Assembly: GCF_009834535.1 (NCBI RefSeq)
Contig: NC_045696.1
Span: 11,224,001-11,288,000, forward strand
Length of the DNA: 64,000 bases
Direction: 5' to 3'
DNA from: Camelus ferus
Lineage: Eukaryota
Numbering within the stretch: position 1 is the first letter of the stretch; every line of letters starts with the position of its first letter. The position numbers were made by a program, and so were the translations under genes. The notes below the pieces were generated by a model. That model saw only the letters and a program-made list of their open reading frames with translations, did not search any database and was not told where the DNA came from. Shown piece by piece: positions 4,119 to 54,613 of this stretch.

Positions 4119-4212
4119 GGAGGAGGGAAATAGCTTAGTGGTAGAGCACTTGCTTAGCATGTAGAAGTCCTGGGTTCAATCCCCAGTACCTCCATTAAAA
4201 AAAAAAAAAAAA
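4119..4212 (+). mobile_element. tRNA-derived SINE (camelid Vic-1-like), short form
   Basis: A box TAGCTTAGTGG, B box GGTTCAATCC, then cagtacctccatt and a poly(A) tail. Confidence 0.85.
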
Positions 4213-10827: not shown

Positions 10828-13179
10828 GACTGCCTTGAATTTTTAACCCTTCTCCCATTGGAACACATCTCATTCCCTCCTCCTGAATTTGGCCCGGCCG
10901 TCCCAATTTATTTGCCCAAAGTCACAGGGCTAGTAAGTGGCTGAGCTCAGATGCGAATTACAGCCGACAGCCTCGGGAGTCCACATCCACAGCCTCTACA
11001 CAGCCGCTGCCCCGGAGCCAGTCTTCCAGAATGAAACAGGCAAATGCCTATTCAGGGCGTAAACACCCTGGTTGGGGGGGGGGGAGGGATTTTTGTCTAG
11101 CACCAAACATCTTTTCCAGAGACAAGAGAAATTAAATTCGGATAAGACACGAGGCCTGTGATGTGTGAGGGACAGATGGAAATAAAGGCACCCTCTCCCG
11201 TGGGTGTCGAAGATGCCTGACACCGGGGGCTGGATGTAACGTGGTATCTGAGAGCTCCTGTAATACAGTTAGAATCAACTTCCTAACACACAAAGATACT
11301 TTTGAGACACTTAAGATGGATTTCTTGATAAAGTTTAATTTATTGGAGTGGGGGGAGTTCCAAGAAGCTGGTTGAGTTTTTTAAAATTATAGATGTCACG
11401 TTTTCCATTGTCTGTATGAAAATATGGGGGAGAGCCACTTTGTGTGTCCCCTGAGATGTGTAACTTGGATAACTTCTATCAAAGCACCACTGGATGTTTA
11501 CTCTTCATAGGAGGGACCCAGTGAGTGGCCCCTCCCTGTGGGTGTCAAAAGCCCCCAACATCTAGGTTGTCTGGAGGGCCAGTGACTGGCATCTGAAGCA
11601 AGCTTCCTCTCTAAAAGGGTCTTTACTGGGTTTGAGAATTTGGGGAGGAGTTTCTTATTGAACTCGATTTCTGGGCTCACCGGGTATAAACTTCCAACTC
11701 TGGTTCATGTGTGCAAGAAAGATCATCTGCAACCTCACACACAGTTTAGAGAATACAAGACATTTTTCCCAGAAATGGAAGTTGTTTAGTGGGTAAGGGA
11801 GATGGGGGCAGAAGATTGAGATTGTTGGTCCTAAGATTCTAAAGTTGCAAAGGGACCCCCCCACCCAAAGCCTCAGGGAGGAGTTTTGAAACCCAGGTTA
11901 TGGTCAGGCGGCATGTCACACAAAAGGAGGGAAGTGTCTCAAGCTGAGCCAGGATTTTATTTAATCAAGTTAATTTTTTAAAAGTCTTTCCTGACTGCAG
12001 ACCTACATGTTGTTGTCCAGATCAAGACATATCCTGAAGTTCTGGACTTGTGATAATATATACATGAGAGTGGGCTTTTATTTCAAACCTGCCACTTTAT
12101 GCCTGTTCCTATATGTCTTCCTTACTGTGAGCTGTATGTGCAAAAATCTGCATTTTAATTTCATGATCATATACCTTGTATCAGAAAACACACGAAAACT
12201 ATTGTCCCGTCCAAAAGCTCTGCTGCAGTGCTGGGACAGTAAGTCCTCAGCAAACATGGATGGGCACCTCAAGTTCTGGAAGTTGTCAATGAAACTGGAA
12301 ACAGAAATACTTCCTAATCAGACGTTCTAAAAGACTTTCACGAAGGGTCCTGCCAGGGATCTGCCTCCTTTTATTAAATACTAACATCTGAGTGAACTTC
12401 AGTTCTGAGCTGGGGTGTAATAGACTATCTTTCTTTTCATACGAGAAGCATCTCATTCCTTCTAAAAACTGCATTTATTCTTTGATGGACACATTGCATG
12501 ACCGTAGTGAAATGCCCAAAGCATCCCAGACTTTGGGACAGGCAGAGAGGATGTGCTCCTGGGACTGAAACTTTGTTTCTGTTTTATTTTGTTTTGTTTT
12601 TCATGCTCATTTCCTCAGCTTACTTGTTATCTTGCCTGAGTAGCTGGAAAAATGCGAGAAGATTGCTCACGAAGTACCAAGTTACTCAAGAGATAAAGAC
12701 TGAGCAGGGAAGATGAGGGAAAGGATGTTAACTCGTGCGATTGTCCGTCCCGAGACCGTGAAGAAGATTAAACATTGGTGGGTACTTTAATAGGAGTTAG
12801 TGAATCATACATCTGAGGAGTGGACATAATGACTCTCTCTCTCTCACATGTGCACAGAGTCAATAGAAAACTCAAAATCTACAATTTGAAGAAACTTACT
12901 CAGCTCACTGGAACCCTAGAAAAATCAAACTCTATTAAGAAATCTATCTTACTGGTCTATTCTGCTCCCATAGCGTATTTTTTACTTTCTCAGGGGGTTC
13001 GTTCCAAACTTATTACTGAGAATAACAGGTGTCACCCTCCTTTCACCTGTAGCCATGAATCCGGGGGCACGTCCCGGCTTCCCCATGATGCCTGCCAGAG
13101 TTCACAAGTGAATGGATGGAAGTTGTTTGGGCCAAACCCCAGCCTCTGCCTGGCTGGCTTCCCCAGTTCAAGGACTCAC

Positions 13180-13285
13180 GTTTGTTGGCTTTCAGCTTCT
13201 TCTCATCCACAGGAATGAGGTCCAAGTAGTCCATGTAGTATTCGTAGCTGTAGTACGCGGCGGAGGCGTTGGTCCTGTTGGCCAT
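13180..13285 (-). CDS. MRAP: MRAP (melanocortin-2 receptor accessory protein), first coding exon
   Basis: ATG at 13285 in a strong context (ggcATGG) encodes [35 protein letters not shown], matching the recalled MRAP N-terminus (N-glycosylation sequons, YEYY, xDYL, LKANK). The 106 coding nt end at a GTGAGT donor (13179), phase 1. Confidence 0.96.
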
Positions 13286-13354
13286 GCCTGCGGCGCTGGG
13301 AGGAGGCACCTCGGAGCCGCCCCAAGCTCTACCAGGAGATCGCCCAGCGGATTT

Positions 13355-13710
13355 CTGTAAAAATCATCCAAGTGTGTCTGTGGGTCTCCAGGCTCAAGGC
13401 CTGCCCACTTATCGGAGCTGTTGGGCTAGGAGAAAGGTCAGGGGGGTGTGCCTGACATCTTCAGTGTGCAAGCAGAGTGTTCCATACCGCCCGGCTTGAC
13501 GGGACTCCAAGACAAACAGATCTGCGAGGTGGGAGCCTGAGGTCCCAGCGCAGGTCCAGGTTGGCCCTCAGCTTTCAGATAGGAAAACAGATCCCACTGG
13601 GCCTCGTGAAAGACAAGATGTGAACTAGGGGTAGAAAGGACAATCACTTTTGGCCTTAAATACTTAATAACTTAGGAAAACCAAATCAAACGACCGGCAG
13701 TGCCCTTGAC
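13355..13710 (-). promoter_or_regulatory. Candidate MRAP proximal regulatory region with nuclear-receptor half-sites
   Basis: TCAAGGCC (13394-13401) and the reverse complement TCAAGGGCA (13701-13709) are NR5A1/SF-1-like; AAAGGTCA (13433-13440) is an NBRE. A possible acceptor tttttacag precedes 13354 on the minus strand. Motif evidence only. Confidence 0.4.
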
Positions 13711-14517: not shown

Positions 14518-14611
14518 GGGGGGCGGGTATAGCTCAGTGGTAGAACAGTGCTTACCATGCATAAAGTCCTGGGTTCCATCCCCAGTACCTCCATCAAAAA
14601 AAAAAAAAAAA
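14518..14611 (+). mobile_element. tRNA-derived SINE (Vic-1-like), short form
   Basis: ggggcgggtatagctcagtggtaga...gggttccatccccagtacctccat followed by a poly(A) tail. Confidence 0.85.
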
Positions 14612-19141: not shown

Positions 19142-19305
19142 AAAAGTTACATTTTAATGTTGAAACAAGCATCGGTATATAACAGAGTATATGCAAAATT
19201 TGCATGATTCTTTTAAAATAAATTTTTATCATAGACAATTTCAAACGTTTGCCAAAGCAGCAAGAATGGTACTATAAAACTTCCTGTAACCATCATTCAA
19301 CTTCA

Positions 19306-20757
19306 GAGGGTTGAGGTGGAGGTGGGAGTGGGGGTGGGGAGATTGTCCCCTTCCCTTAGCCCTCCAGCCATGGCAGCTGCAACCCGACCCCCCCAGTGAG
19401 CCAAGCTGTGTCAGTGTCAGCGGCGAGAGCCCCTCCCCACCACACACACACCAGAAGACCAGTAGTCACCTCTTCCCACTGTCTCGCCTTGGCGACCTAC
19501 GGACAGAACTGCCGATGTGTATTCCTTCATCTTACGCTGACCTTGGCAAAGCTGCCAGAGATATTTTCAACAAACAATTTGTTCTGGGGTTGGTGAAATT
19601 GGATATGAAAAAAAAGTCAAGCAGTGGCATGGAATTCTCAACATCTGGTTCATCCAATACAGACACTGGTAAAGTTACTGGGATCTTGGAGACCAAAAAT
19701 AAATGGTGGGAGTATGGCCTGACTTTCACAGAAAAGTGGAAGACTGATAACACTCAGGGAACGAAAACCACCATCAGAGACCAGATCTGCAAGGTTTGGA
19801 ACCGACACTTGATACCACCTTTTCACCAAACGCGGGAAAGAAACACGATGACATCAAGTCGTCTTACAAGAGGGAGTACATAAACCTTGGTTGTGATGTT
19901 GACTTTGGCTTTGCTGGACCTGCCATCTATGGTTCAGCTGTCTTTGGTTATAAAGGCTGGCTTGCTGGGTACCAGATGACCTTGGGCAGTGCCAAATAAA
20001 AGCCGACAAGGAATCACTTTGCAGTGGGCTACAGGAGTGGACATTTCCAGCTACACAGTAATGTCAATGGTGGGACAGGATTTGGAGGATCAGTTTATCA
20101 GAAAGTATGTCAAGATCTTGACACTTCAATAAACCCTGCTTGGACATCAGGGACCAACTGCTCTGGCTTTGGCATTGCAGCTGAGTATGAGTTGGTTCCC
20201 ACTGCTTTCATTTCCGCAAAAGTCAACAACTCTAGTTTAATTGGAGTGGGCTTTGCTCAGACTCTGAGGTCTGGTGTGAAGCTGACACTGTGCTGGCAAG
20301 ACGGAAGAGCCTATAAACCTGAGCTCGCCCTGGAGCTGGATCCAGCTGAAATCCAGCTGAAATAAAACCTCTGGGAATGGCTATCAGAAGATTTGGCCTT
20401 AATATATTCCAGTGTGACCAACAGGCTTCCCCCACCACACCCAAGAAGGTGATCAAAACAAAAGATGATCTAGATAAGAGCTGTATTTTAAATATTTATT
20501 TTATTTTTTATTATATATTTTGTATTGACGTGTAGTCGAAGCACAATGTTAGTTTCAGGTGTATAGCAAAGCAATTCAGTTATATATAGTATTTTAAATT
20601 TTTAGATTGTTACTTGTTAGCTGGTTTCTAGTTGAATCGGTTACCTAGTTACTAACGCTACAGCCATGCAGTCACTGTACGTTGTTTAAATGTATTTAAC
20701 TGTTAAATGGGCTACCCACCAATACTGAAATAGAACTTTATGAAAAATGAAAAAAAA
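19306..20757 (+). pseudogene. VDAC2: VDAC2 processed pseudogene (retrocopy) with 5' UTR, CDS remnant, 3' UTR and poly(A)
   Basis: Intronless VDAC2-like peptides: (TTG at 19489) [95 protein letters not shown]. Disablements are the lost ATG, a small 5' deletion, a frameshift near 19790, a TAA at 19997-19999 and C-terminal deletions. A-tail to 20757; 14-bp TSD atca(t/c)tcaacttca at 19292-19305 and 20758-20771. Confidence 0.95.
20499..20588 (-). mobile_element. About 90-bp 5'-truncated L1 tail inserted into the VDAC2 pseudogene 3' UTR
   Basis: T-rich tract plus tattgacgtgtagtcgaagcacaatgttagtttcaggtgtatagcaaagcaattcagt; 16-bp TSD gtattttaaat(a/t)ttta at 20483-20498 and 20589-20604. Confidence 0.8.
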
Positions 20758-24780: not shown

Positions 24781-24936
24781 TTTTTAAAAAAATTATTTTA
24801 TTTTATGGGAGGGAGGTCATTAGGTCTATTCATTTATTTATTATTCGTTTTTTTTTTAATGGAGGTACTGGGTATTGAACCCACGACCTCTGCATGCTAA
24901 GCATGTGCTCTACCACTTGAGCTATACCCTCTCCCC
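24781..24936 (-). mobile_element. tRNA-derived SINE (Vic-1-like), long-tail form
   Basis: ggaggtactgggtattgaaccc...gcatgtgctctaccacttgagctataccctctcccc is the reverse complement of the shared consensus. Confidence 0.85.
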
Positions 24937-29919: not shown

Positions 29920-30760
29920 GTAACCACTGTGAAGGTCTCGGTAAGGAGCTGGTGACTTAGTTTGCGGCGCGTAATTTTCTCAAACACGCTTTCCTCCTAT
30001 ACAAGCGACAACTCTCCTCGCCAAATAGCCCGTCAGGCGAACCTCCAGCAGCCTCCATTTCCGTGGGATTAGAAAGCCTGACGCAGGTGCAGTGACTCCC
30101 GGCTCAGGCCCAGTTCCACGGCGAGCATGCGCGCTACCAGGCGGCCCGCGATCAGTCTTCCCTCAGGCCCCGCCCCTCAGGTTTTAGCCCCTTCTCGGCC
30201 TCCGCCGCCGCGCCCTGCCGCGCGCATGCGCAAGGTTTTTTGTTTTTTGTTTTTTTCTTTTTTCCCGCGGCTCTCCGCGGCGCGGGCAATTTGTAGGTAA
30301 TGGCGGGTGCTTGGTTTCCGGGTTGTTGCAAAGGATGCTCCTCTGCTAGCTGTGCATGTGGCGACAAAGGCAAGTGGAGTGACTCCTCGCTGTTAGGCAA
30401 GCGGCTCTCCGAAGACTCGGGCCGCCACCAGCTGCTGCAGAAGTGGGCGAGCATGTGGAGCTCCGTGAGCGGGGACGCGTCGGTGGCCTGCACGGAAAGG
30501 ACGCAGCGCGAGGAGGCTGCGGAGCCAGGCCGAGGAGGAGGACAGGCCGCTGGTGTTTCTGTGCTCCCGCTGCCGGCGGCCTCTGGGCGATTCTCTGAGC
30601 TGGGTGACGAGCCAGGAGGACACCAACTGCATCCTGCTGCGCTGTGAGTTCCGGCCGCGGAAGCCCTAAGCCTTGGGGCCACCTTCTTTCCAGGTGTGCC
30701 GCACCTGGGCGGCCCAGGAGGAGGCGGAGGTGGCTTTCGGGCTGCCCAGGGTCTTTAAAA
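29920..30760 (+). promoter_or_regulatory. MIS18A CpG-island promoter and first exon
   Basis: CpG-dense, GC-rich block. NRF1 palindrome cGCGCATGCGCA (30221-30232), a second NRF1-like GAGCATGCGC near 30123, GC box CCCCGCCCC (30168-30176) and E2F consensus TTTCCCGC (30261-30268). This is typical of a cell-cycle gene promoter. Confidence 0.85.
30300..30643 (+). CDS. MIS18A: MIS18A (Mis18-alpha) coding exon 1, with an apparent +1 frameshift at 30527/30528
   Basis: The ATG frame encodes [51 protein letters not shown]. The conserved continuation [38 protein letters not shown] (first CxxC) is in the +1 frame from 30529. GTGAGT donor at 30644. Confidence 0.93.
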
Positions 30761-33024
30761 GCAGAAAAACCAGAGAGGGTGAACTGTCCCAGATAAAGGG
30801 ATGGAGGGTCACCCCTGCATCTTGGGCTCACGAGTCACAGGTCCTTCTCTGGGGTCCCCCATCCCAGAAAAGCAGCAGAGGAATCAGCATCGTCCTGAGC
30901 ATTAGTTAGGGAACAAAGACCAATTAGGCTGAAGCATTTGGGGTGTAGCGTCTTACTCCTCATAGATATTAGCAGGCTGTTACTCGTTAAATAATATTGT
31001 TAACAGTTTATTTAGGAAATTAAGCTCAGCTACCTGCTTCCTGCAGGGGATGTCAGTGTTGATTACTCAGACCTTATTATCAACGGACGCCTTTACAGTC
31101 TGACGTGTTAAAACCATAGAGTTGACCGAACACAGTGCTATAAAAATTGTTTTTTTTAGAAAGTAGGAAACTTTCAGTGAAAGCTTTCAGTAAATAATCC
31201 CATCAAAATTTGGAGAGGAAGGAGGTTGTTGTAAAAGAGTTAAGGTCGGAGTTCTAGCTTCTAATACTGGCTCCACCAGTTATCTGTAGGTTTTTCCCAG
31301 CGTTCTTTTGCTTTGTTGTTTTCCTAGTATTTATTTAGGGGAATTTTTTTTCAGCGTTGCCACCATTAGAACAGCATGTATGTATTTCGGTTGGGATTTT
31401 TGATACAGTAGGAGAAGTTCTTTATTTTGGTGGGTGAGTTTATGTTACGACTTTTTAAGAAATAATACGTTTGGTGTTAAGTTTTCAGTTTTACCATACT
31501 TACATCTTTATCACATGGGCCCTTTCCTTTGTTTTGTTTTATCTATTAAAATAGGATTCTTTTATCCAGTTGTTCTATACTAGTAGTTTTTAAAATTTAA
31601 GTATTTTATATATTTTATGTATGTATGTGTGTATATATATATATTTTTTTGTCAGCTTTAGAGAAATCAATTTAACACACCCCTTCATCTTTCCTCCCTC
31701 CCAAAGAAAGGTAAAGAAATGAACTTTTAGATTAATTTCTATTCCCGCGACCCCAATTTGAGTTAGTTTAATTATTTTTACTTTGTCAAGATTTATAACA
31801 TTTCTGTAGCCATAGCCTGATCATTTGGCTTAATGTTTCTATGAACTGATTTCTCAACTCCAGGACTTTTATTAATAGGAAAGCTTATTAATAGCTGTCT
31901 CATTCCTGAGTTGTTTATTTGATTAATCGTCATCAGTGGTCTCCTCATCCCCAAGAAAACTTCAAGTTGGAGTGCTTGAAAATGTCATTATATTGTCTTT
32001 GTACATGAATGTCAGCTTGGCTGCATGTTCAGTTCTGGGGTCATGCGCGTTGCTTTTTCCAGGCACGAGGGAGCAGCTAGTGCAAAGGCCTTGAGGCTAG
32101 TGTGGCCGGATAGTAGAATAAAGATAAGATTTAAGGAGAAAGGAAGGGGCCAGAAAATTCAGGACCTTGTAGGCTGTTCTGTAGAATCTATTCTAGTGAA
32201 TGAGGTGTTTAAGCAGGAGGGTGAAATGACCCAGTTTTTTCTTTGGAGGACGCACTGAAGAGGAGAATAAGCGTGGAAGTGGGGAGGTCAGTCAGGAGCT
32301 AGTGCAGTCGTCCGGGCAGGGGAGGTGGGGGTGGTGTGGGGGTGGAGTGAGGGTTGTCAGGTAGTATTGATAGGGCTGATGAGTGGAGTGGATGTAGGGG
32401 AGCAGGGCCAGGGGATGAGGAATCAAGGATGACACCGGGTAGATGGAGGTGGATTTACCCAGTTAAGGTGGACTCTAGGAAGAGGTGACATCAAGAGTCT
32501 GCTCTGGCCGTTTTAGGTCTGATGTCCCTTCTTCATGTCCCTCCACCCCCTCCTCTAATGTATCCTGGACTTGGGTCCCCCGGGGATGTTTCCTGCTTTT
32601 CTAGGGTTCATCTGTGACCCCTGTCCAAGCTGTGGTCTAAAAGATTTGGGGCTGGGTTCCTGAGGACCCTCTCAATTACTTCTAGAAAAATGAGCTCTGT
32701 GTTTGAGATCTAGAGATGTGTATGCAGGCTTTTATCGTCTTCCTTGGTTTTCATCCCAATTTTACTGTCTGGTGAATATTCTTGGTAGTCTGTGGTTTGA
32801 GGTTCTGGTTGTTCCAAGTTTTATTGTCAATTGAATTTCATCCCCTAATTTTATTCATTTGGTTAAGTTCATGGGATGGGAAGGAAATAACTTCTGTTCT
32901 GCCATCTTTTTCCAGAAGACCTGTACATTTAGTTTTAAACCACCCCTGTGTGTATGTGACTTTGGACCCTTATTTTTTTTGGCCTTCTGAGTTCTAAAAT
33001 GAAAATTGAATTAGAAGTTCTCTA

Positions 33025-33201
33025 GGGGTGGGTATAGCTCAAGTGGTAGAGTGTGTGCTTAGCATCCATGAAGTCCTGGCTTCAATCCCCAGTACCTCCA
33101 TTTAAAAGATAATTAAATAAATAAACCTAATCACCTCCCCCATCCCCCCCCCAAAAGGCTTGTAACAATACCAAAAGTAAATAAATAAAATCTGTGTAGA
33201 A
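33025..33201 (+). mobile_element. tRNA-derived SINE (Vic-1-like), long-tail form, in MIS18A intron 1
   Basis: SINE head and tail; 13-bp TSD tagaagttctcta at 33012-33024 and 33202-33214. Confidence 0.9.
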
Positions 33202-33274
33202 TAGAAGTTCTCTAAATGTTTTCATATGTATCACAACAAACCGCATTAGTAAGTAGTTACTTTCTTCTTTCTAG

Positions 33275-33341
33275 CTGTTTCCTGTAACGTTTCTGTGGAT
33301 AAGGAACAGATACTGTCCAAACGTCAAAATGAAAATGGTTG
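33275..33341 (+). CDS. MIS18A: MIS18A coding exon 2
   Basis: Acceptor tttcttctttctag, 67 nt encoding (S)VSCNVSVDKEQILSKRQNENG(C), donor gtgagt. Confidence 0.95.
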
Positions 33342-35421
33342 GTGAGTAAGGCTTTCGGTGTGAATATATATGTTAGAGAAAATGTTTTTGAAATAAAAAT
33401 CTTTAAAAAGATCATTAGCAGTAGGATTTGGGATAAAACTTTTTCATAGTGATCAGTATAAAATCAGTCGTTCTGATATATCAGTTTTTGAGTGGTGGTG
33501 GTCTACTTATAGATGAGATGGAAGGGTTTCTAAATTTCTCAAGGCACATTCTGACACTCCCTTTTTGGATCTTTGGGTTTGGTGCTGAAGAAAATTGAAA
33601 ATAAAAATAGAAGAAGAAAATACCTGCATCATGAAATCTCAGAGCCAAAAGATGGTTCAGACAAATGCTCCCCACCTTCTTCATGTCATGACAATCAAAG
33701 AAAATGCTAATGTGCATTCCCACATGCACACAGACATAGGGCCTTCTGAGGTCAACAGACAAGGCTGCGGAAGGAACAGCGTGGGGCTCCAGCAATCGCA
33801 GGGCCTGTGCTGCCACCCTGAGGCGTGAAGTGTCAGTATCTGGCTCTGCCTCCCACCCACCTGCCGCAAGTGGCGTCCTCAGCGAATGGAATGGGAAGCT
33901 CTGCCTTACAGAATTGCTGCCCATTGTACGTAAATAAGTGGTACACAAGCAATTAAACAGAAATTAATAATCATAAGTATACTTTAAGTGTATTTTAAAA
34001 TATTGGGTTTTCATCTTTAATAATGCTAGAGAGTCCTATTCAAATAAAGTGTATTTTAATTAAAATTACTTTACCTAAGGAGAATTAAATTCATGATAGG
34101 ACAGGTACTATGTGGATGTAATAGCAGTTGTACTGCTGGCGTTCAGGTGATTTGGAAAACCCAGTGCTAGGTCATTTCTCATTTTGTAGCTGAAGAAAGT
34201 GAGGCCTGGGGAGGTTAGAACTCACTAAGGATACAGGACTAATCAGTTAAAAGCTAGGATGATGCTTTGTTATCTCTCTTTGCTTCCTGCAAAGTTTTCT
34301 CTGCTTCCCGACTCTAGTCACCTTGATGTCACCTTTACCATTTTTGCCCTATCTCTGATAGCTGTGCTATCATGTACTTAATATTTTTCATTAAATTGAC
34401 ACAATTTTTAAAAAAAGGAATCTTTATATTACTGTCATAAGGGTATCACTTGCTGTAACCAGAAAGTAACTGTGAAGATAATTACAGTGAAAACAAATGT
34501 TATTAAATTCTAGCTGAGATACTATTCCCTGGCTGGTTCTGAGCCTGAGGTCTGTTCTCTTACTGTTAAAAGATTTGCAGCTGTGAGATACAAGCTAAAG
34601 ACATTCTAGCACCAGACTGAGACTTCTTTTAACAATTAGGATTGATAAAGAATTGAAAAGGGAATTGACTTTCAGTCTTTGGACCAGTGTTACTTAGTCC
34701 TGTTTACTTGTATCCCCTGAACACGTCCTTTATGCCGTGTTCCATTGTCTTGAATTTCACTAGCGTCACAGGTCACTTCGGGAAATACCTTATTGCTTTA
34801 GGATGCTCATGAATTTTTTCATAGAGCTATCCTACTGAATAGCTGCCTGAGCCATTCTGCAGAAGGTCGACAGGAGTACTTGTGGGTTTTGGAATTACAT
34901 TGTAAAGGTAGCAGTGCTCTCTTTCCTCTATTCACCCTGATTCTGTCATTTGCTAATTTTCCTACAAGCTAATTCATTCCTTGTCTAAAATCACCTTATG
35001 ATTTCTGGCACTGCTTTCTCCATAAATGACAAGGGTGAATGCTGGCCAAATATTTGCCAGCTGTGAAAGCAGAAAGATGCTGTGATAACAGAGACTGCCA
35101 TCTCTTCATTGCTTCTCAAGAAGTGAATGGGTTTGCCTGCACTCTTTAGTGGCATCAGTCTGACTTTGATAATTCAGAATAAAAGTCTTATGCATTGATC
35201 AGTCTATTTTGTGTTTTAGTTTTATCTAAGAATCCTTTCTTGTCTGATGACACCCACGTTAGATATCATTTCACAATCTTGGTAATTGTGTATAGTGGCC
35301 TGGTCTCAATCACTAGTTTTGATATGTAGCAAATTTTCCTTTCACTGTTGGTAGTATAGGTAGGATTCCTCTGTGGGGCTTATTAAAATGCTTTTCTATT
35401 TCTTATATAAAAACATAATTG

Positions 35422-35957
35422 ACCTAAACATCCGTCAACAGATGACTGGATAAAGAAATTGTGGTATGGTTTTACAATGGAATACTACTCAGCCATAAAA
35501 AAGAATAACACAACGCCATTTGCACCAACATGGATGGACCTGGAGATCATCATTCTAAGTAAAGCAAGCCAGAAAGAGAAAGAAAAATACCATATGATAT
35601 CACATATATCTGCAATCCCTCCCATCCCCACCAAAAGACACAAATGAACTTATTTATAAAATAGAAACAGACTCACAGGCATAAAAAACAGACTTATGGT
35701 TACCAGGGGAGAAAGGAGATGGGAAGGGATAAATTAGGAGTTCGAGATTTACAGATACTAACTACTATGTATATAATAGATAAACAACAAGTTTATACTG
35801 TATAGCACAGGGAACTATATTCAATATCTTGTAGTAACCTATAATGAAAAAGAATATGAAAAGGAATGTATGTATGTGTATGTATGACTGAAACATTATG
35901 CTGTACACTAGAAATTGATGCAACATTGTAAACTGACTATACTTCAAGAAAAAAAAA
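35422..35957 (+). mobile_element. L1 3' fragment in MIS18A intron 2
   Basis: caacagatgactggataaag...ggaatactactcagccataaaaaagaat...actatacttcaa followed by an A tail. Confidence 0.9.
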
Positions 35958-36587
35958 TAACAGAAGCTTATAAAAGCCCATATAAAGGCTTAATATATGA
36001 TTGTGATATATTATCTAATTATACCATCAATGAGAGCTTATAATATCAGGCAGTGATCCATTTTGTTTTTTGTTCTTTTTTCTGTATGTTGCCACAGCAA
36101 TTAAGACTGTCTCTTAGTATCTAGGCAAACAGTAATGCAATCTATAATATGCTGTTTGAGTCTTGGTTAGCTCCAATTTGCTTGATAGCAGAAATAGCTA
36201 TTTAGTTATTAAAAGTGTCTCACATACCCAAAGGAATTATAATACTTTTGGAATAACAGCTACCTTTTGTGATATATATTGCACTATCATGATCATTACT
36301 AGATTTGAATCTCCAGTTATCAATTTGCTATGTCTTAGAACTGTAACTTTTGTATGGGTATTTCTATTTGGGTCAATTAGACAAGGCATTTGGGAGACAG
36401 AAGATTCTAAGTGCTAAAGAAGACCTGAATTGACATGAGGAAATATTTTCAATTTTGCAGAACCTGAGTTGAGAAATATTGGGAATGAAGGAACAGTGTT
36501 GTGGAGAAATAATGATGGATCAAGTGAAATATTTGTGAATTATCTCTGTGGAACATATTTGTAGTTGATAGAGAAGTATTGGTATCT

Positions 36588-36750
36588 GGGGGGAGGGCAT
36601 AGCTCAGTAGTAGAGTGTGTGCTTAGCACGCATGAGGTCCTGGGTTCAATCCCCAGTACCTCCATTCATCAATCAATCAGTCAATCAATCAATCCCTAAT
36701 TACCTCCTCCTGCAAAATGTAAAATAAAATAAAGGAAAAACTTAAAAAAA
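36588..36750 (+). mobile_element. tRNA-derived SINE (Vic-1-like), long-tail form with (TCAA)n
   Basis: ggggagggcatagctcagtagtagag...gggttcaatccccagtacctcca, then ctaattacctcc and an A-rich end. Confidence 0.88.
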
Positions 36751-37085
36751 ATTAGTATCAAAGAATAATTTTTAAAAAGTCATCTCTAACAAATACGTAA
36801 TGAGCACATGTCAAGGTGTTTTTAACTCCTTAGTGAGGGAACCAGGATATAGCAAAGTTGGTTTAGAGGAGGATACTCTATAGGACACATGTAGTTAATG
36901 TCCTACAGGACAGTAAAACCTCAGCCTTTGGGGTTATCTTTTTTTTTTAATGGAAAACATTTGCATCTGTACCAGGCTAAAATGATTTGTAACTTATCAG
37001 TTTTCTTTCTATAAGTCATCATCTAACTTTAGAGAGTCTGGGCACCAATCAATAGTAGGTAGTAACCAAACAATGTTACCTCCAT

Positions 37086-37314
37086 GGTAGCAAACTATGG
37101 CTCGTGGGCCAGGCACCAGTTTTTTGTGTTTTTTTTGTAAATATATTTTTACTGGAACACAGACTGTCCATTCAGGTCCATTCAGTTGTGTATTACCTGT
37201 GGTGGCTTCTGTGATGCACTGGTGGAGGCAGGTAGTTACGACAGACACCAGCTAGCCTGTGAGCCTAAAATATTTGTTCTCTGGACCATTACAGAGAAAA
37301 TTTGCTTACCCTGG
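37086..37314. mobile_element. MER58A-like hAT MITE
   Basis: gcaaactatggctcgtgggcc...gcctaaaatattt..ctctggaccattacagagaaaatttgc..accctg. Confidence 0.7.
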
Positions 37315-37705
37315 CCCCAGAGTGTTAATGATCCTTGGTGCACAATATAACATTAAAAGGGCATGTAGAATCTTTTTGTCTTATTTCCAGATTGTAGATA
37401 ATTTTTCTTAATACCAGATTGAGGTGCTTACATTCTAGAAAAACACCGCCTTAGTGTACTCCCTTCTTGCCACTTTTGTATATGCCCCTTGTCGCTAGTG
37501 CTTAAGGCAGTGTGGCCTGGAGGTGACTCTGCATTTCCAATGTAAGCATCTTACTGTCACTTTTTCCTTCTTTATATATGTGACTTAGGAGGGTCAGGAT
37601 AACATACTTCAGCAACTTAACCGTTTAGGTGTTTCTGGATCTGAACAGTGGAATCTTGTTGACCAGTTGCTGCTTTGCTGACGCTGTGGCGTTTCTGTGC
37701 TGCAG

Positions 37706-37828
37706 CATTCTGGAGCCTTTGTACTGCGCGGGGTGTTCGCTCAGCCTTGGCTACGTTTACAGATGCACACCCGAGGATCTAGACTACAAGAGGGACTTGT
37801 TTTGCCTCAGTGTTGAAGCCATTGAAAG
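37706..37828 (+). CDS. MIS18A: MIS18A coding exon 3 (second CxxC of the Yippee-like domain)
   Basis: Acceptor gctgcag, 123 nt encoding [40 protein letters not shown](S), donor gtaagt. Confidence 0.96.
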
Positions 37829-39764
37829 GTAAGTTTGCTATATAAGTGAATAGCTCAAAACTGAACTCTCAAAGTTCTTTGCAGAGAAACTGGTATGAAA
37901 ACATTGGAATTAAATCAACACTGGTTACAATTTTTAAGTAGTAATTTCTGACAAAGCCAGTGATTTTTTTTGTTTGTTTGCACCTGATTTATTTGGTATT
38001 GGAAAAGTCTGTCATTCTAAATTGTAGGAGAAAACACTGAGAACATTTTTCAGAGTAAAAATTTGTTCAGTTTTTTTGTAGTAGATATTTATTTTAATAG
38101 GATTTTTAAAAAGCAGCTGTGTGTATCAGTATATTTTGCCCATTTTATTTTTTTCTCTACTTTTTAGCCTCCTAGAATATCATGAAGAAATAGGAGTTTC
38201 AAAAATAGGTCAGGAGAGAAGTCCCTTTGGTGTTCTGGAAAAGTAGACATACACAGTCCAACTATTTCCTTGAAAGTAGTGAAGGATTGTGTGCTTTTTA
38301 TTTTCTTGAGAGATGCAAGGAAGTACCTTCACTTCTCAAGATTTCTGAAAAGTGTTAGGAGACAAGGTGAATCAGGGGCTGATGACAGATGTCTTAATGG
38401 CTATCTAATTATTAGCCTTTTTAAATGGGGAACAAAATTAATCAATTGATCCCAATGTATTTTCACTTATCCTGGAGAAGATATAACTCTTAAGACTTTT
38501 AAGATATCTAAGAAATCAGAAAGAAGAACAATTTAAGAAGAAAAGAAAGTGTCCACACTTGCATTTCTCGAGGTATTTTTGTCACTCCTGTTGAATTTCT
38601 TAGTTTTTTTCTTCAAAAAATTTAAAACAGTATTTTTATTACATTATAATTTCTCATTTAATTATTCTTTGATAACTGCAGTTTTGCCACCTTCTTTGAA
38701 AGTAGATAGGTTTAGATCAAAATTATAAAATCTTCAAACTTTTTACCGTCCTTACACAAAAGAATAATACAGCAAGTACTGCTCATTATTGTAAAGCATG
38801 TAGGCTTGCCTGGAGAGAGGTCACATCTGTCTTGTTTTTTTAATATTTAAATGGAAGACCCAGGCCCAAACAAATCTTGTTTCCTTTAATCTCCATGAGA
38901 ACTTTACCCGGATTTGTGAAAATGAAGTGAGTGAGAGTACAAGTATGAAAGACACGGACTCTCAGTCCAGCAGGGTTGGTACAAAACTTCGAAAAGTGAT
39001 GCAGGTGTGTGTAAAAGAAAACGTGTGGGAGGTTCTCCCACAGGGGGTCATAGTATTGAAGCAGTTTTTTCCTGAACAGTTGAATTTAAGGTAGTTACCT
39101 CTTGGGGCAGAATTTTAATGTCAAGGAACCTGGTTTGTGGTAGAAGTGCATGCTGTCTGTAATGTTTATTTGCAACTTTATAAATTGCTCATTGCCATTT
39201 CATTTTTTCCCCTCATCTCATTTTTTTTCAGAATAGGATGTTAATTGCCTTCCGTAATTTTGCTTCCCATGCCATTTTTCAGAAATAGGGTTTACAAGAG
39301 AAGATCGTTCTTATTTGACAAAAGAAGTGACACACTGGAATTGTCACATGTGATGAAAGACTACTAAAGAAATGCAAATGAATCAAGTTTTCTTTTGAGA
39401 AATACTAGCACTTTCCTCCTTGCTGTTTAGATTTATTTGGTTACCGAAGCTGGGCCTATTTTCCTCCCGTTGCCAGGCCAGTTTTTCTGCTCGTGTGGCA
39501 TTTTCTAAATCACAGCATCTCATCATCCCAGAGAGGGAAGCCAAACATAACTTACAAGTGTTGCAGTTGCCCAAATCTGGGAAATCAGGAGTTGATGCCA
39601 CAAATTATTTACTGAAAGTCAAATTTGAAAATGCACATGTTCCTGAAAAGTTACATAAAGCAAAACAGCAGTGGCTTCTTAAGGATCTTTTTAAACTGTA
39701 AAATAGAATTTTGAACTGTAAGTGTTAATGTTTTGCCTCCCATGGAGGGGGCGCCTGTATGATT

Positions 39765-39873
39765 GGGGGAGGGGGAAATAGCTCGGTGGTAGAGCTCATG
39801 CTTAGCATGCACGAGGTCCTGGGTTTAACCCCAGTACCTCCGTTTACAAAACACACACACACACACACACACA
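39765..39873 (+). mobile_element. tRNA-derived SINE (Vic-1-like), short form with a (CA)n tail
   Basis: SINE head followed by (AC)n; degenerate TSD gcctgtatg / gccttgtatg. Confidence 0.85.
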
Positions 39874-40161
39874 GCCTTGTATGTTTTGCCGCCCAGCTTA
39901 CTAAAGAGCAAGTTTATTCCCAATAATGAAATACTTACGATACTGGGAACTATGTGGGGCTGTCTGGACAAAGCTGTTACAGAGAAAAGCATGCTTTCCT
40001 GTGGTATAACTTTCTATGTAGGTTGCTATGAACAAAAGTAGTTGTTTCATGTGTTTACTTGGTACTAACATATAGTTTAATACATTTTGAGTTTTAATAT
40101 TACATAAATTTTATATTTACTCCCATTTCATCTTTTAACTTTGTGTTGTACTATACTTTAG

Positions 40162-40258
40162 TTATGTTTTAGGGTCCTCTGAAAAGCAAATTGTGTCAGA
40201 AGATAAAGAGCTTTTTAATCTTGAAAGCAGAGTTGAAATAGAAAAATCTCTAAAGCAG
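40162..40258 (+). CDS. MIS18A: MIS18A coding exon 4
   Basis: Acceptor ctttag, 97 nt encoding [32 protein letters not shown], donor gtaatt. Confidence 0.95.
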
Positions 40259-40870
40259 GTAATTTTGTTCTGCACTTTTTGTATCTTTGTATGAACAACT
40301 TCCAGTCAGTGAACAAGAGCTTCTCCACAAATAATGCTTATAATGTCTTCTGTTTTGATCTTAGCACTTTCCTGGTGAGAGTGCTTATTTTGTTTTATTA
40401 TTAATTGTTTATTTCAGTTGGTAAGGTTGATTTTTTGGGAGCCAGATTACAAATTATGCTAAAGCTTTATAAAAAAAATAATAGTAAAGAAGACATTTCA
40501 TGCTAAAATCAAAGTAATATATATTCTGAAACTATTAAAATGGAAATATGTTTTAATGAAATCAATATTTCCTTTGATTCAACTCACATGGTAAAAATAA
40601 CCTTGTTATTGATTGTTAACATCTCATTGCCAGATAAGCAAGAGAGTGATGAATGTATAAAAAAGCTGTAGATTAGAGGTTGAGAACTACTGTTAATAGA
40701 TGTATGTCTTATATAAATAGAATTCCATTAAATAAACACTGAATATCTATGTGTAATCCATAACATTCAGAAATTATATTAATGGTATATATTTTAATCA
40801 TATTTAACCAAGTATAATTTTAATCATATGTATTTTTTTTTTTTTTTGTATTCTTTTTTCAATCCAATAG

Positions 40871-40951
40871 ATGGAGGATGTTTTGAAAGCATTACAAACA
40901 AAGCTGTGGGAGGCTGAATCAAAATTGTCCTTTACCAGTTGCAAAAGCTGA
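40871..40951 (+). CDS. MIS18A: MIS18A coding exon 5 (C-terminal helix and stop)
   Basis: A long T tract and caatag acceptor precede MEDVLKALQTKLWEAESKLSFTSCKS*, with TGA at 40949-40951. With one base removed from exon 1 the CDS is 711 nt (236 aa). Confidence 0.96.
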   Translation: MEDVLKALQTKLWEAESKLSFTSCKS

Positions 40952-41688: not shown

Positions 41689-41701
41689 AATAAAGATTAA
41701 A
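41689..41701 (+). terminator. Candidate MIS18A polyadenylation signals
   Basis: AATAAA (41689-41694) and ATTAAA (41696-41701) about 740 nt after the stop, followed by T/GT-rich sequence. Confidence 0.55.
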
Positions 41702-54444: not shown

Positions 54445-54613
54445 TATTTTTAAAATATTTTATTTATTTATATTTATTTATTATTTTATATATATCTTTT
54501 GGCAGGGGAATAGGTAACTAGGTTTATTTATTTTTAATGGAGGTACCGGGGAGTGAACCCAGGACCTCGTGCCTGCTAAGCATGTGCTCTATCACTTGAG
54601 CTGTACCCTCCCC
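54445..54613 (-). mobile_element. tRNA-derived SINE (Vic-1-like), long-tail form
   Basis: Reverse complement of the shared SINE consensus with an AT-rich tail. Confidence 0.85.

Follow-up and report, generated by a model that had tools for sequence, protein, structure and literature searches.

The window, by which we mean the whole 64-kb stretch of Camelus ferus DNA analysed here, carries MIS18A as a five-exon gene on the forward strand (Table 1). We located the gene by tblastn with camel and whale Mis18-alpha proteins and then checked it by exact translation. The first exon matches the camelid protein P0091 in two portions: the translation of 30300-30527 gives residues 1-76 letter for letter, and 30529-30643 supplies residues 77-114 together with the first base of codon 115. 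Read through the splice junctions, 30529-40951 translates exactly to residues 77-236. With the surplus base between the two portions set aside, the translation agrees with P0091 at 236 of 236 residues, and each of the eight splice sites is canonical. No second lesion or relaxation of constraint is visible in MIS18A beyond that one base. AATAAA/ATTAAA signals follow 3' of the coding part of exon 5, at 41689 and 41696.

The promoter and first exon lie in a CpG island with a CpG observed/expected ratio of 0.85, and GC content rises from 0.64 over the island to 0.70 in the interval 30450-30600, which contains the surplus base. Within the island, 37 bases upstream of the ATG, there is a T-rich tract of about 28 bases made of GTTTTTT repeats. 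An alternative acceptor of exon 3, before 37667, inserts 13 further residues within the Yippee domain, giving the 249-aa isoform X1 (P0001) that is annotated in three camelids.

Assignment to the Mis18-alpha family is based on a full-length collinear match, conserved exons and the presence of a single copy. A search with the N-terminal 76 residues returned 90 Mis18-alpha proteins (E ≤ 0.001), and Pfam PF03226 is precomputed for 90 of the 90 relatives. The Yippee frame of exon 1 (30538-30642) aligns to residues 1-35 of human Mis18-alpha (7sfz chain B, E 1.8e-16), with 32 of 35 aligned residues identical and the first CxxC motif reading CSRC in the window vs CSGC in the human protein, an ordinary orthologue-level difference. 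The conserved frame also matches Mis18 of S. pombe (5hj0_A), more weakly (E 0.0025). The domain layout of Mis18-alpha is a Yippee domain followed by a C-terminal coiled coil. Both zinc-binding CxxC motifs of the Yippee-like domain are present, CSRC being paired with CAGC in the exon-3 translation. Against the PDB, the N-terminal 76 residues gave chance matches only (E ≥ 0.42), this part of the protein being covered by none of the solved structures. In the genome that carries the window (2,087,093,976 bases), a search for a second MIS18A copy found none: the 6 matches among 19 candidates are all exons of the MIS18A locus.

Other features surround the gene. On the reverse strand, an ORF piece matches profile positions 1-36 of the MRAP family (PF15183, E 6e-15). 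It is one exon of the gene for the melanocortin-2 receptor accessory protein, head-to-head upstream of MIS18A, a neighbourhood that is presumably the same as in human. An intron-less VDAC-like sequence (Pfam Porin_3) is made up of three pieces, at profile positions 2-91, 89-152 and 158-256, spread over two frames; a stop separates the last two pieces. The sequence resembles a processed pseudogene derived from a mitochondrial porin. Seven weak matches to a tRNA model (33-48 bits), in introns and intergenic DNA, are most likely the heads of tRNA-derived SINEs rather than tRNA genes.

Table 1 Features of the MIS18A region. Positions are those of the window, except for the two histone loci, which are given in coordinates of the genome assembly.
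Feature	Position	Strand	Remarks
MRAP-family ORF piece	13046-13363	-	PF15183
VDAC-like sequence	19290-20362	+	Porin_3, intron-less
CpG-island promoter and first exon	30000..30700	.	GC 0.64
T-rich tract	30235-30263	+	GTTTTTT repeats
MIS18A exon 1, coding part	30300..30643	+	ATG 30300, donor GT 30644, GC 0.65
TGA closing the conserved (Yippee) frame upstream	30466..30468	+	zero Met between TGA and 30529
Surplus-base site	30527..30529	+	CCA GGC C in the window vs Pro-Ala (CCN GCC) in in-frame relatives P0001, P0003, P0091, P0092
MIS18A exon 2	33275..33341	+	AG/GT
TAA met by the as-assembled ATG frame	33285..33287	+	in exon 2 of 5
Alternative 3' splice site of exon 3	37667-37705	+	adds 13 residues
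MIS18A exon 3	37706..37828	+	AG/GT
MIS18A exon 4	40162..40258	+	AG/GT
MIS18A exon 5, coding part	40871..40951	+	stop TGA 40949-40951
tRNA-model matches	4124-4194, 14523-14593, 24860-24931, 33028-33100, 36593-36664, 39772-39842, 54538-54610		33-48 bits
Histone locus L012	G000:C20:17712700-17714000		H2A gene paired with H2B gene; one inserted base
Histone locus L014	G000:C21:25407700-25409000		H2A gene paired with H2B gene; one inserted base

Reading frame of MIS18A exon 1

The ATG frame opens with MAGAWF and runs to ...TQREEAAEP, the last six residues being encoded at 30510-30527 by the codons GAG GAG GCT GCG GAG CCA. At this point the exon reads GAG CCA GGC CGA where the in-frame relatives encode E-P-A-E, i.e., it holds one base too many, and the ATG frame departs from the conserved frame at 30528. 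Dropping any one of A30527, G30528 or G30529 restores E-P-A-E, three solutions that protein-level comparison does not separate. The run in which the surplus base lies consists of only two G, and a long homopolymer is absent.

As assembled, MIS18A does not read in a single uninterrupted frame from ATG to stop. Spliced from the donor after 30643 to the acceptor before 33275, the ATG frame yields a product of 118 aa that ends in ...HPAALCFL, at the TAA in exon 2. By the usual rule, a premature stop in exon 2 of 5 makes a transcript an NMD target, and the as-assembled transcript would be expected to be one because its TAA falls there. The conserved frame is closed upstream of the surplus base by a TGA, with no Met between this stop and 30529; therefore, initiation in the Yippee frame cannot rescue the gene.

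These readings agree with a preliminary description of the same DNA, which had proposed that the frame from ATG 30300 matches Mis18-alpha through EEAAEP and that the Yippee domain starts at 30529, one base out of frame. The codons at 30510-30527 confirm the former, and the alignment to human 7sfz_B the latter. Its placement of the extra base at A30527 or G30528 also holds, G30529 being a further candidate. The predicted encounter of the shifted frame with TAA after splicing was recovered with the 118-aa product, and reading of the frames bore out a conserved frame without an ATG that is shut upstream by TGA 30466. The description had further regarded the other exons and the splice sites as intact, in keeping with AG/GT at every junction and the exact match to P0091.

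Camelid records, sequencing runs and histone genes

The frame of exon 1 was compared among camelids at the protein level. The models from C. bactrianus and C. dromedarius (P0001, P0091) and from Vicugna pacos (P0092) are in frame and read EEAAEPAEE. The same is true of the older gene model of C. ferus (EQB78514.1, P0003), which lies on a scaffold of 5.46 Mb. Five further mammals are in frame in five of five cases, namely blue whale, peccary, hippopotamus, warthog and human (P0004, P0005, P0007, P0011 and P0064). The Mis18-alpha of C. bactrianus and C. dromedarius (P0091; XP_010954894.1, XP_010989934.1) shares with the window the same 236 residues, the five exons and the alternative acceptor of exon 3, and the window differs from it by the additional base at 30527-30529. 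Logan assemblies of public runs also contain P0091, which spans the five exons and therefore presumably derives from spliced transcripts. In metagenome contigs, a search for host-derived MIS18A gave 83 pattern matches with P0091 and no relatives.

The NCBI RefSeq protein of C. ferus, XP_006187562.2 (P0002), bears the label LOW QUALITY PROTEIN, and its sequence at this site is EEAASQAEEED. Identity to the window is 100% over 30300-30521 and 30523-30642, with base 30522 skipped; the model therefore represents the same DNA as the window with one base passed over by the annotator. The skipped base precedes the probable error by a few positions, and the public sequence has S-Q where all relatives have E-P. 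S-Q is an annotation work-around and not a distinct sequence. Because NCBI flags this protein, the frame break in MIS18A was already implicitly known.

We also searched for proteins in which the N-terminus continues into the shifted tail. With the 115-aa as-assembled ORF of exon 1 as the query and at near lengths (22 of 32 candidates passed), none was found in a collection of about 15 billion proteins. P0097-P0100 were considered as shifted products and rejected, being alternative-frame ORF calls from other species.

The chromosome-level assembly of the wild camel was produced with PacBio Sequel at 130x and comprises 2.09 Gb, whereas the older wild-camel assembly, of 2.01 Gb, was built from Illumina/SOLiD/Roche data (Table 2 of PMC9374477). 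The agreement with the NCBI model is one of the grounds on which we infer that the window is part of the PacBio-based assembly. Camel genome authors explicitly examined whether uncorrected PacBio indels had truncated proteins (PMC7468183), and the abstract of PMC12007338 describes frameshifts from long-read errors that pseudogenise genes.

Twenty-four sequencing runs were matched to the region. The 14 DNA-type runs share 0.97-0.99 of 316 sampled words, with six runs being possible sources, and the share is 0.43-0.53 for four runs of RNA type, one of which is only presumed to be RNA. No DNA-type run, the possible sources included, contains all 316 sampled words. The top share of 0.99 is close to what one 1-bp difference would cost, a weak and circumstantial hint. 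CpG-island first exons, such as the one that carries the surplus base, typically have poor short-read coverage, and polishing with short reads is weakest there.

Similar lesions were sought in conserved genes of the same genome. A search for the histone family PF00125 gave 94 matches, from which 12 regions were fetched, comprising nine truncated or split matches and three intact references. Two of the 21 H2A-class matches (L012 and L014) are each broken by a single extra base within a short homopolymer (TT to TTT and CC to CCC, respectively), near codons 81-84; the other 19 are full length. Compared with an intact paralogue, L012 and L014 have 47 and 48 codons with synonymous changes only vs 11 and 9 non-synonymous ones, a pattern that points to clear purifying selection on both H2A genes apart from the insertion. 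The two loci are candidate assembly errors and could also be young pseudogenes. Their resemblance to the MIS18A lesion suggests, as support rather than as proof, that insertions of single bases are no rarity in this assembly. The remaining seven of the nine suspect loci (L008-L011, L013, L018 and L019) carry several lesions each, were judged to be degenerate pseudogenes and were rejected as evidence of assembly error.

Origin of the surplus base

Taken together, the MIS18A frameshift is very probably an uncorrected consensus insertion in the assembly, and the feature is most likely not biological. The base is absent, at the protein level, from the other records of the same and the sister species, and MIS18A shows no other decay. 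The window would then hold an intact, functional camel MIS18A with one spurious base in its GC-rich first exon, CCAGGCC having been assembled where CCAGCC or CCGGCC would be expected. The proposed cause is an insertion from a long-read (PacBio CLR-type) consensus that polishing would have left in place, and the animal would most likely produce a normal Mis18-alpha of 236 aa, with the same sequence as in its sister species. We infer that the sequenced animal's own DNA lacks the extra base. In several respects the case resembles the long-read indel errors that are known to fragment genes: it is a single-base insertion in GC-rich coding DNA within an otherwise perfect ORF, it is absent from a short-read-based record of the same species, and it was flagged by the annotator. 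It differs from them in that such errors typically fall in longer homopolymers, whereas the run in MIS18A is only GG. The preliminary description had given first place to an indel of the assembly or consensus in GC-rich DNA, which the in-frame camelid models and the LOW QUALITY flag of NCBI support. It had also held that camelid orthologues one base shorter would mark the base as an artefact, and at the protein level those of C. bactrianus, C. dromedarius and Vicugna pacos, as well as the older C. ferus model, correspond to such a sequence.

Deletion of Mis18-alpha in mice is reported to be embryonic lethal (introduction of PMC5788582), as the preliminary description also states. A homozygous, real frameshift would be null in an essential gene because there is no second copy and no Met in the conserved frame until residue 211, and it should be inviable because Mis18-alpha is essential in mouse and no second copy exists. 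For a heterozygous carrier, it would be enough that the mutant haplotype had been chosen during assembly. The surplus base would then be a real 1-bp insertion, a recessive-lethal MIS18A null in the sequenced wild camel that was picked up by a pseudo-haploid assembly. Small, inbred populations do carry recessive lethals, the otherwise perfect gene is what a very young mutation would leave behind, and the in-frame C. ferus model (P0003) may stem from another individual, in which case it rules out fixation and is still compatible with a private allele. Nevertheless, we consider such an allele unlikely. The thousands of essential genes contribute only about one or two recessive lethals per individual, whereas in CLR assemblies the share of genes hit by uncorrected indels is at the percent level; the prior of a heterozygous allele is therefore far below that of an uncorrected indel. 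Against it also stand the look-alike single-base insertions in conserved histone genes of the same genome and the absence, from the collection of about 15 billion proteins, of any transcript- or DNA-derived protein with the shifted tail.

A real frameshift that is fixed or homozygous would need to be rescued, whether by programmed ribosomal frameshifting, by transcript slippage or editing, by an alternative start or by a second copy. Only the frame break in the assembly and the essentiality of the gene speak for such a rescue, and we regard it as highly improbable; rescue of a homozygous frameshift by recoding is more improbable still. The frame break is not conserved, as every other camelid model is in frame, one from C. 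ferus included. No antizyme-type stop-codon shift site was seen at 30519-30541 when the sequence was read by eye, and such a +1 site would go with a conserved frame break, whereas the camelid and mammalian Mis18-alpha proteins compared are all encoded in one frame. Rescue by downstream initiation was rejected, since the first Met of the conserved (Yippee) frame is residue 211 of 236 and the TGA at 30466-30468 closes that frame upstream. Rescue by a retrocopy was likewise rejected, the genome having no second MIS18A locus. The premature stop of the assembled gene could alternatively mark MIS18A as a young unitary pseudogene in this lineage, a reading to which we give very little credence. It is opposed by the lack of any amino-acid difference from the sister species over 236 codons, by the intact splice sites, by the essentiality of the gene in mouse and by the lack of a replacement copy.

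Should the base instead be real and heterozygous, conservation breeding of wild camels would have a candidate recessive lethal to track, and a heterozygous null of the centromere-licensing gene MIS18A would represent a concrete genetic load in the critically endangered reference wild Bactrian camel. With an uncorrected consensus insertion, as we favour, the meaning lies in the use of the genome. The work-around protein of NCBI (P0002) carries two wrong residues, S-Q for E-P, and scans of this assembly for gene loss or pseudogenes would wrongly score an essential centromere gene, MIS18A, as broken.
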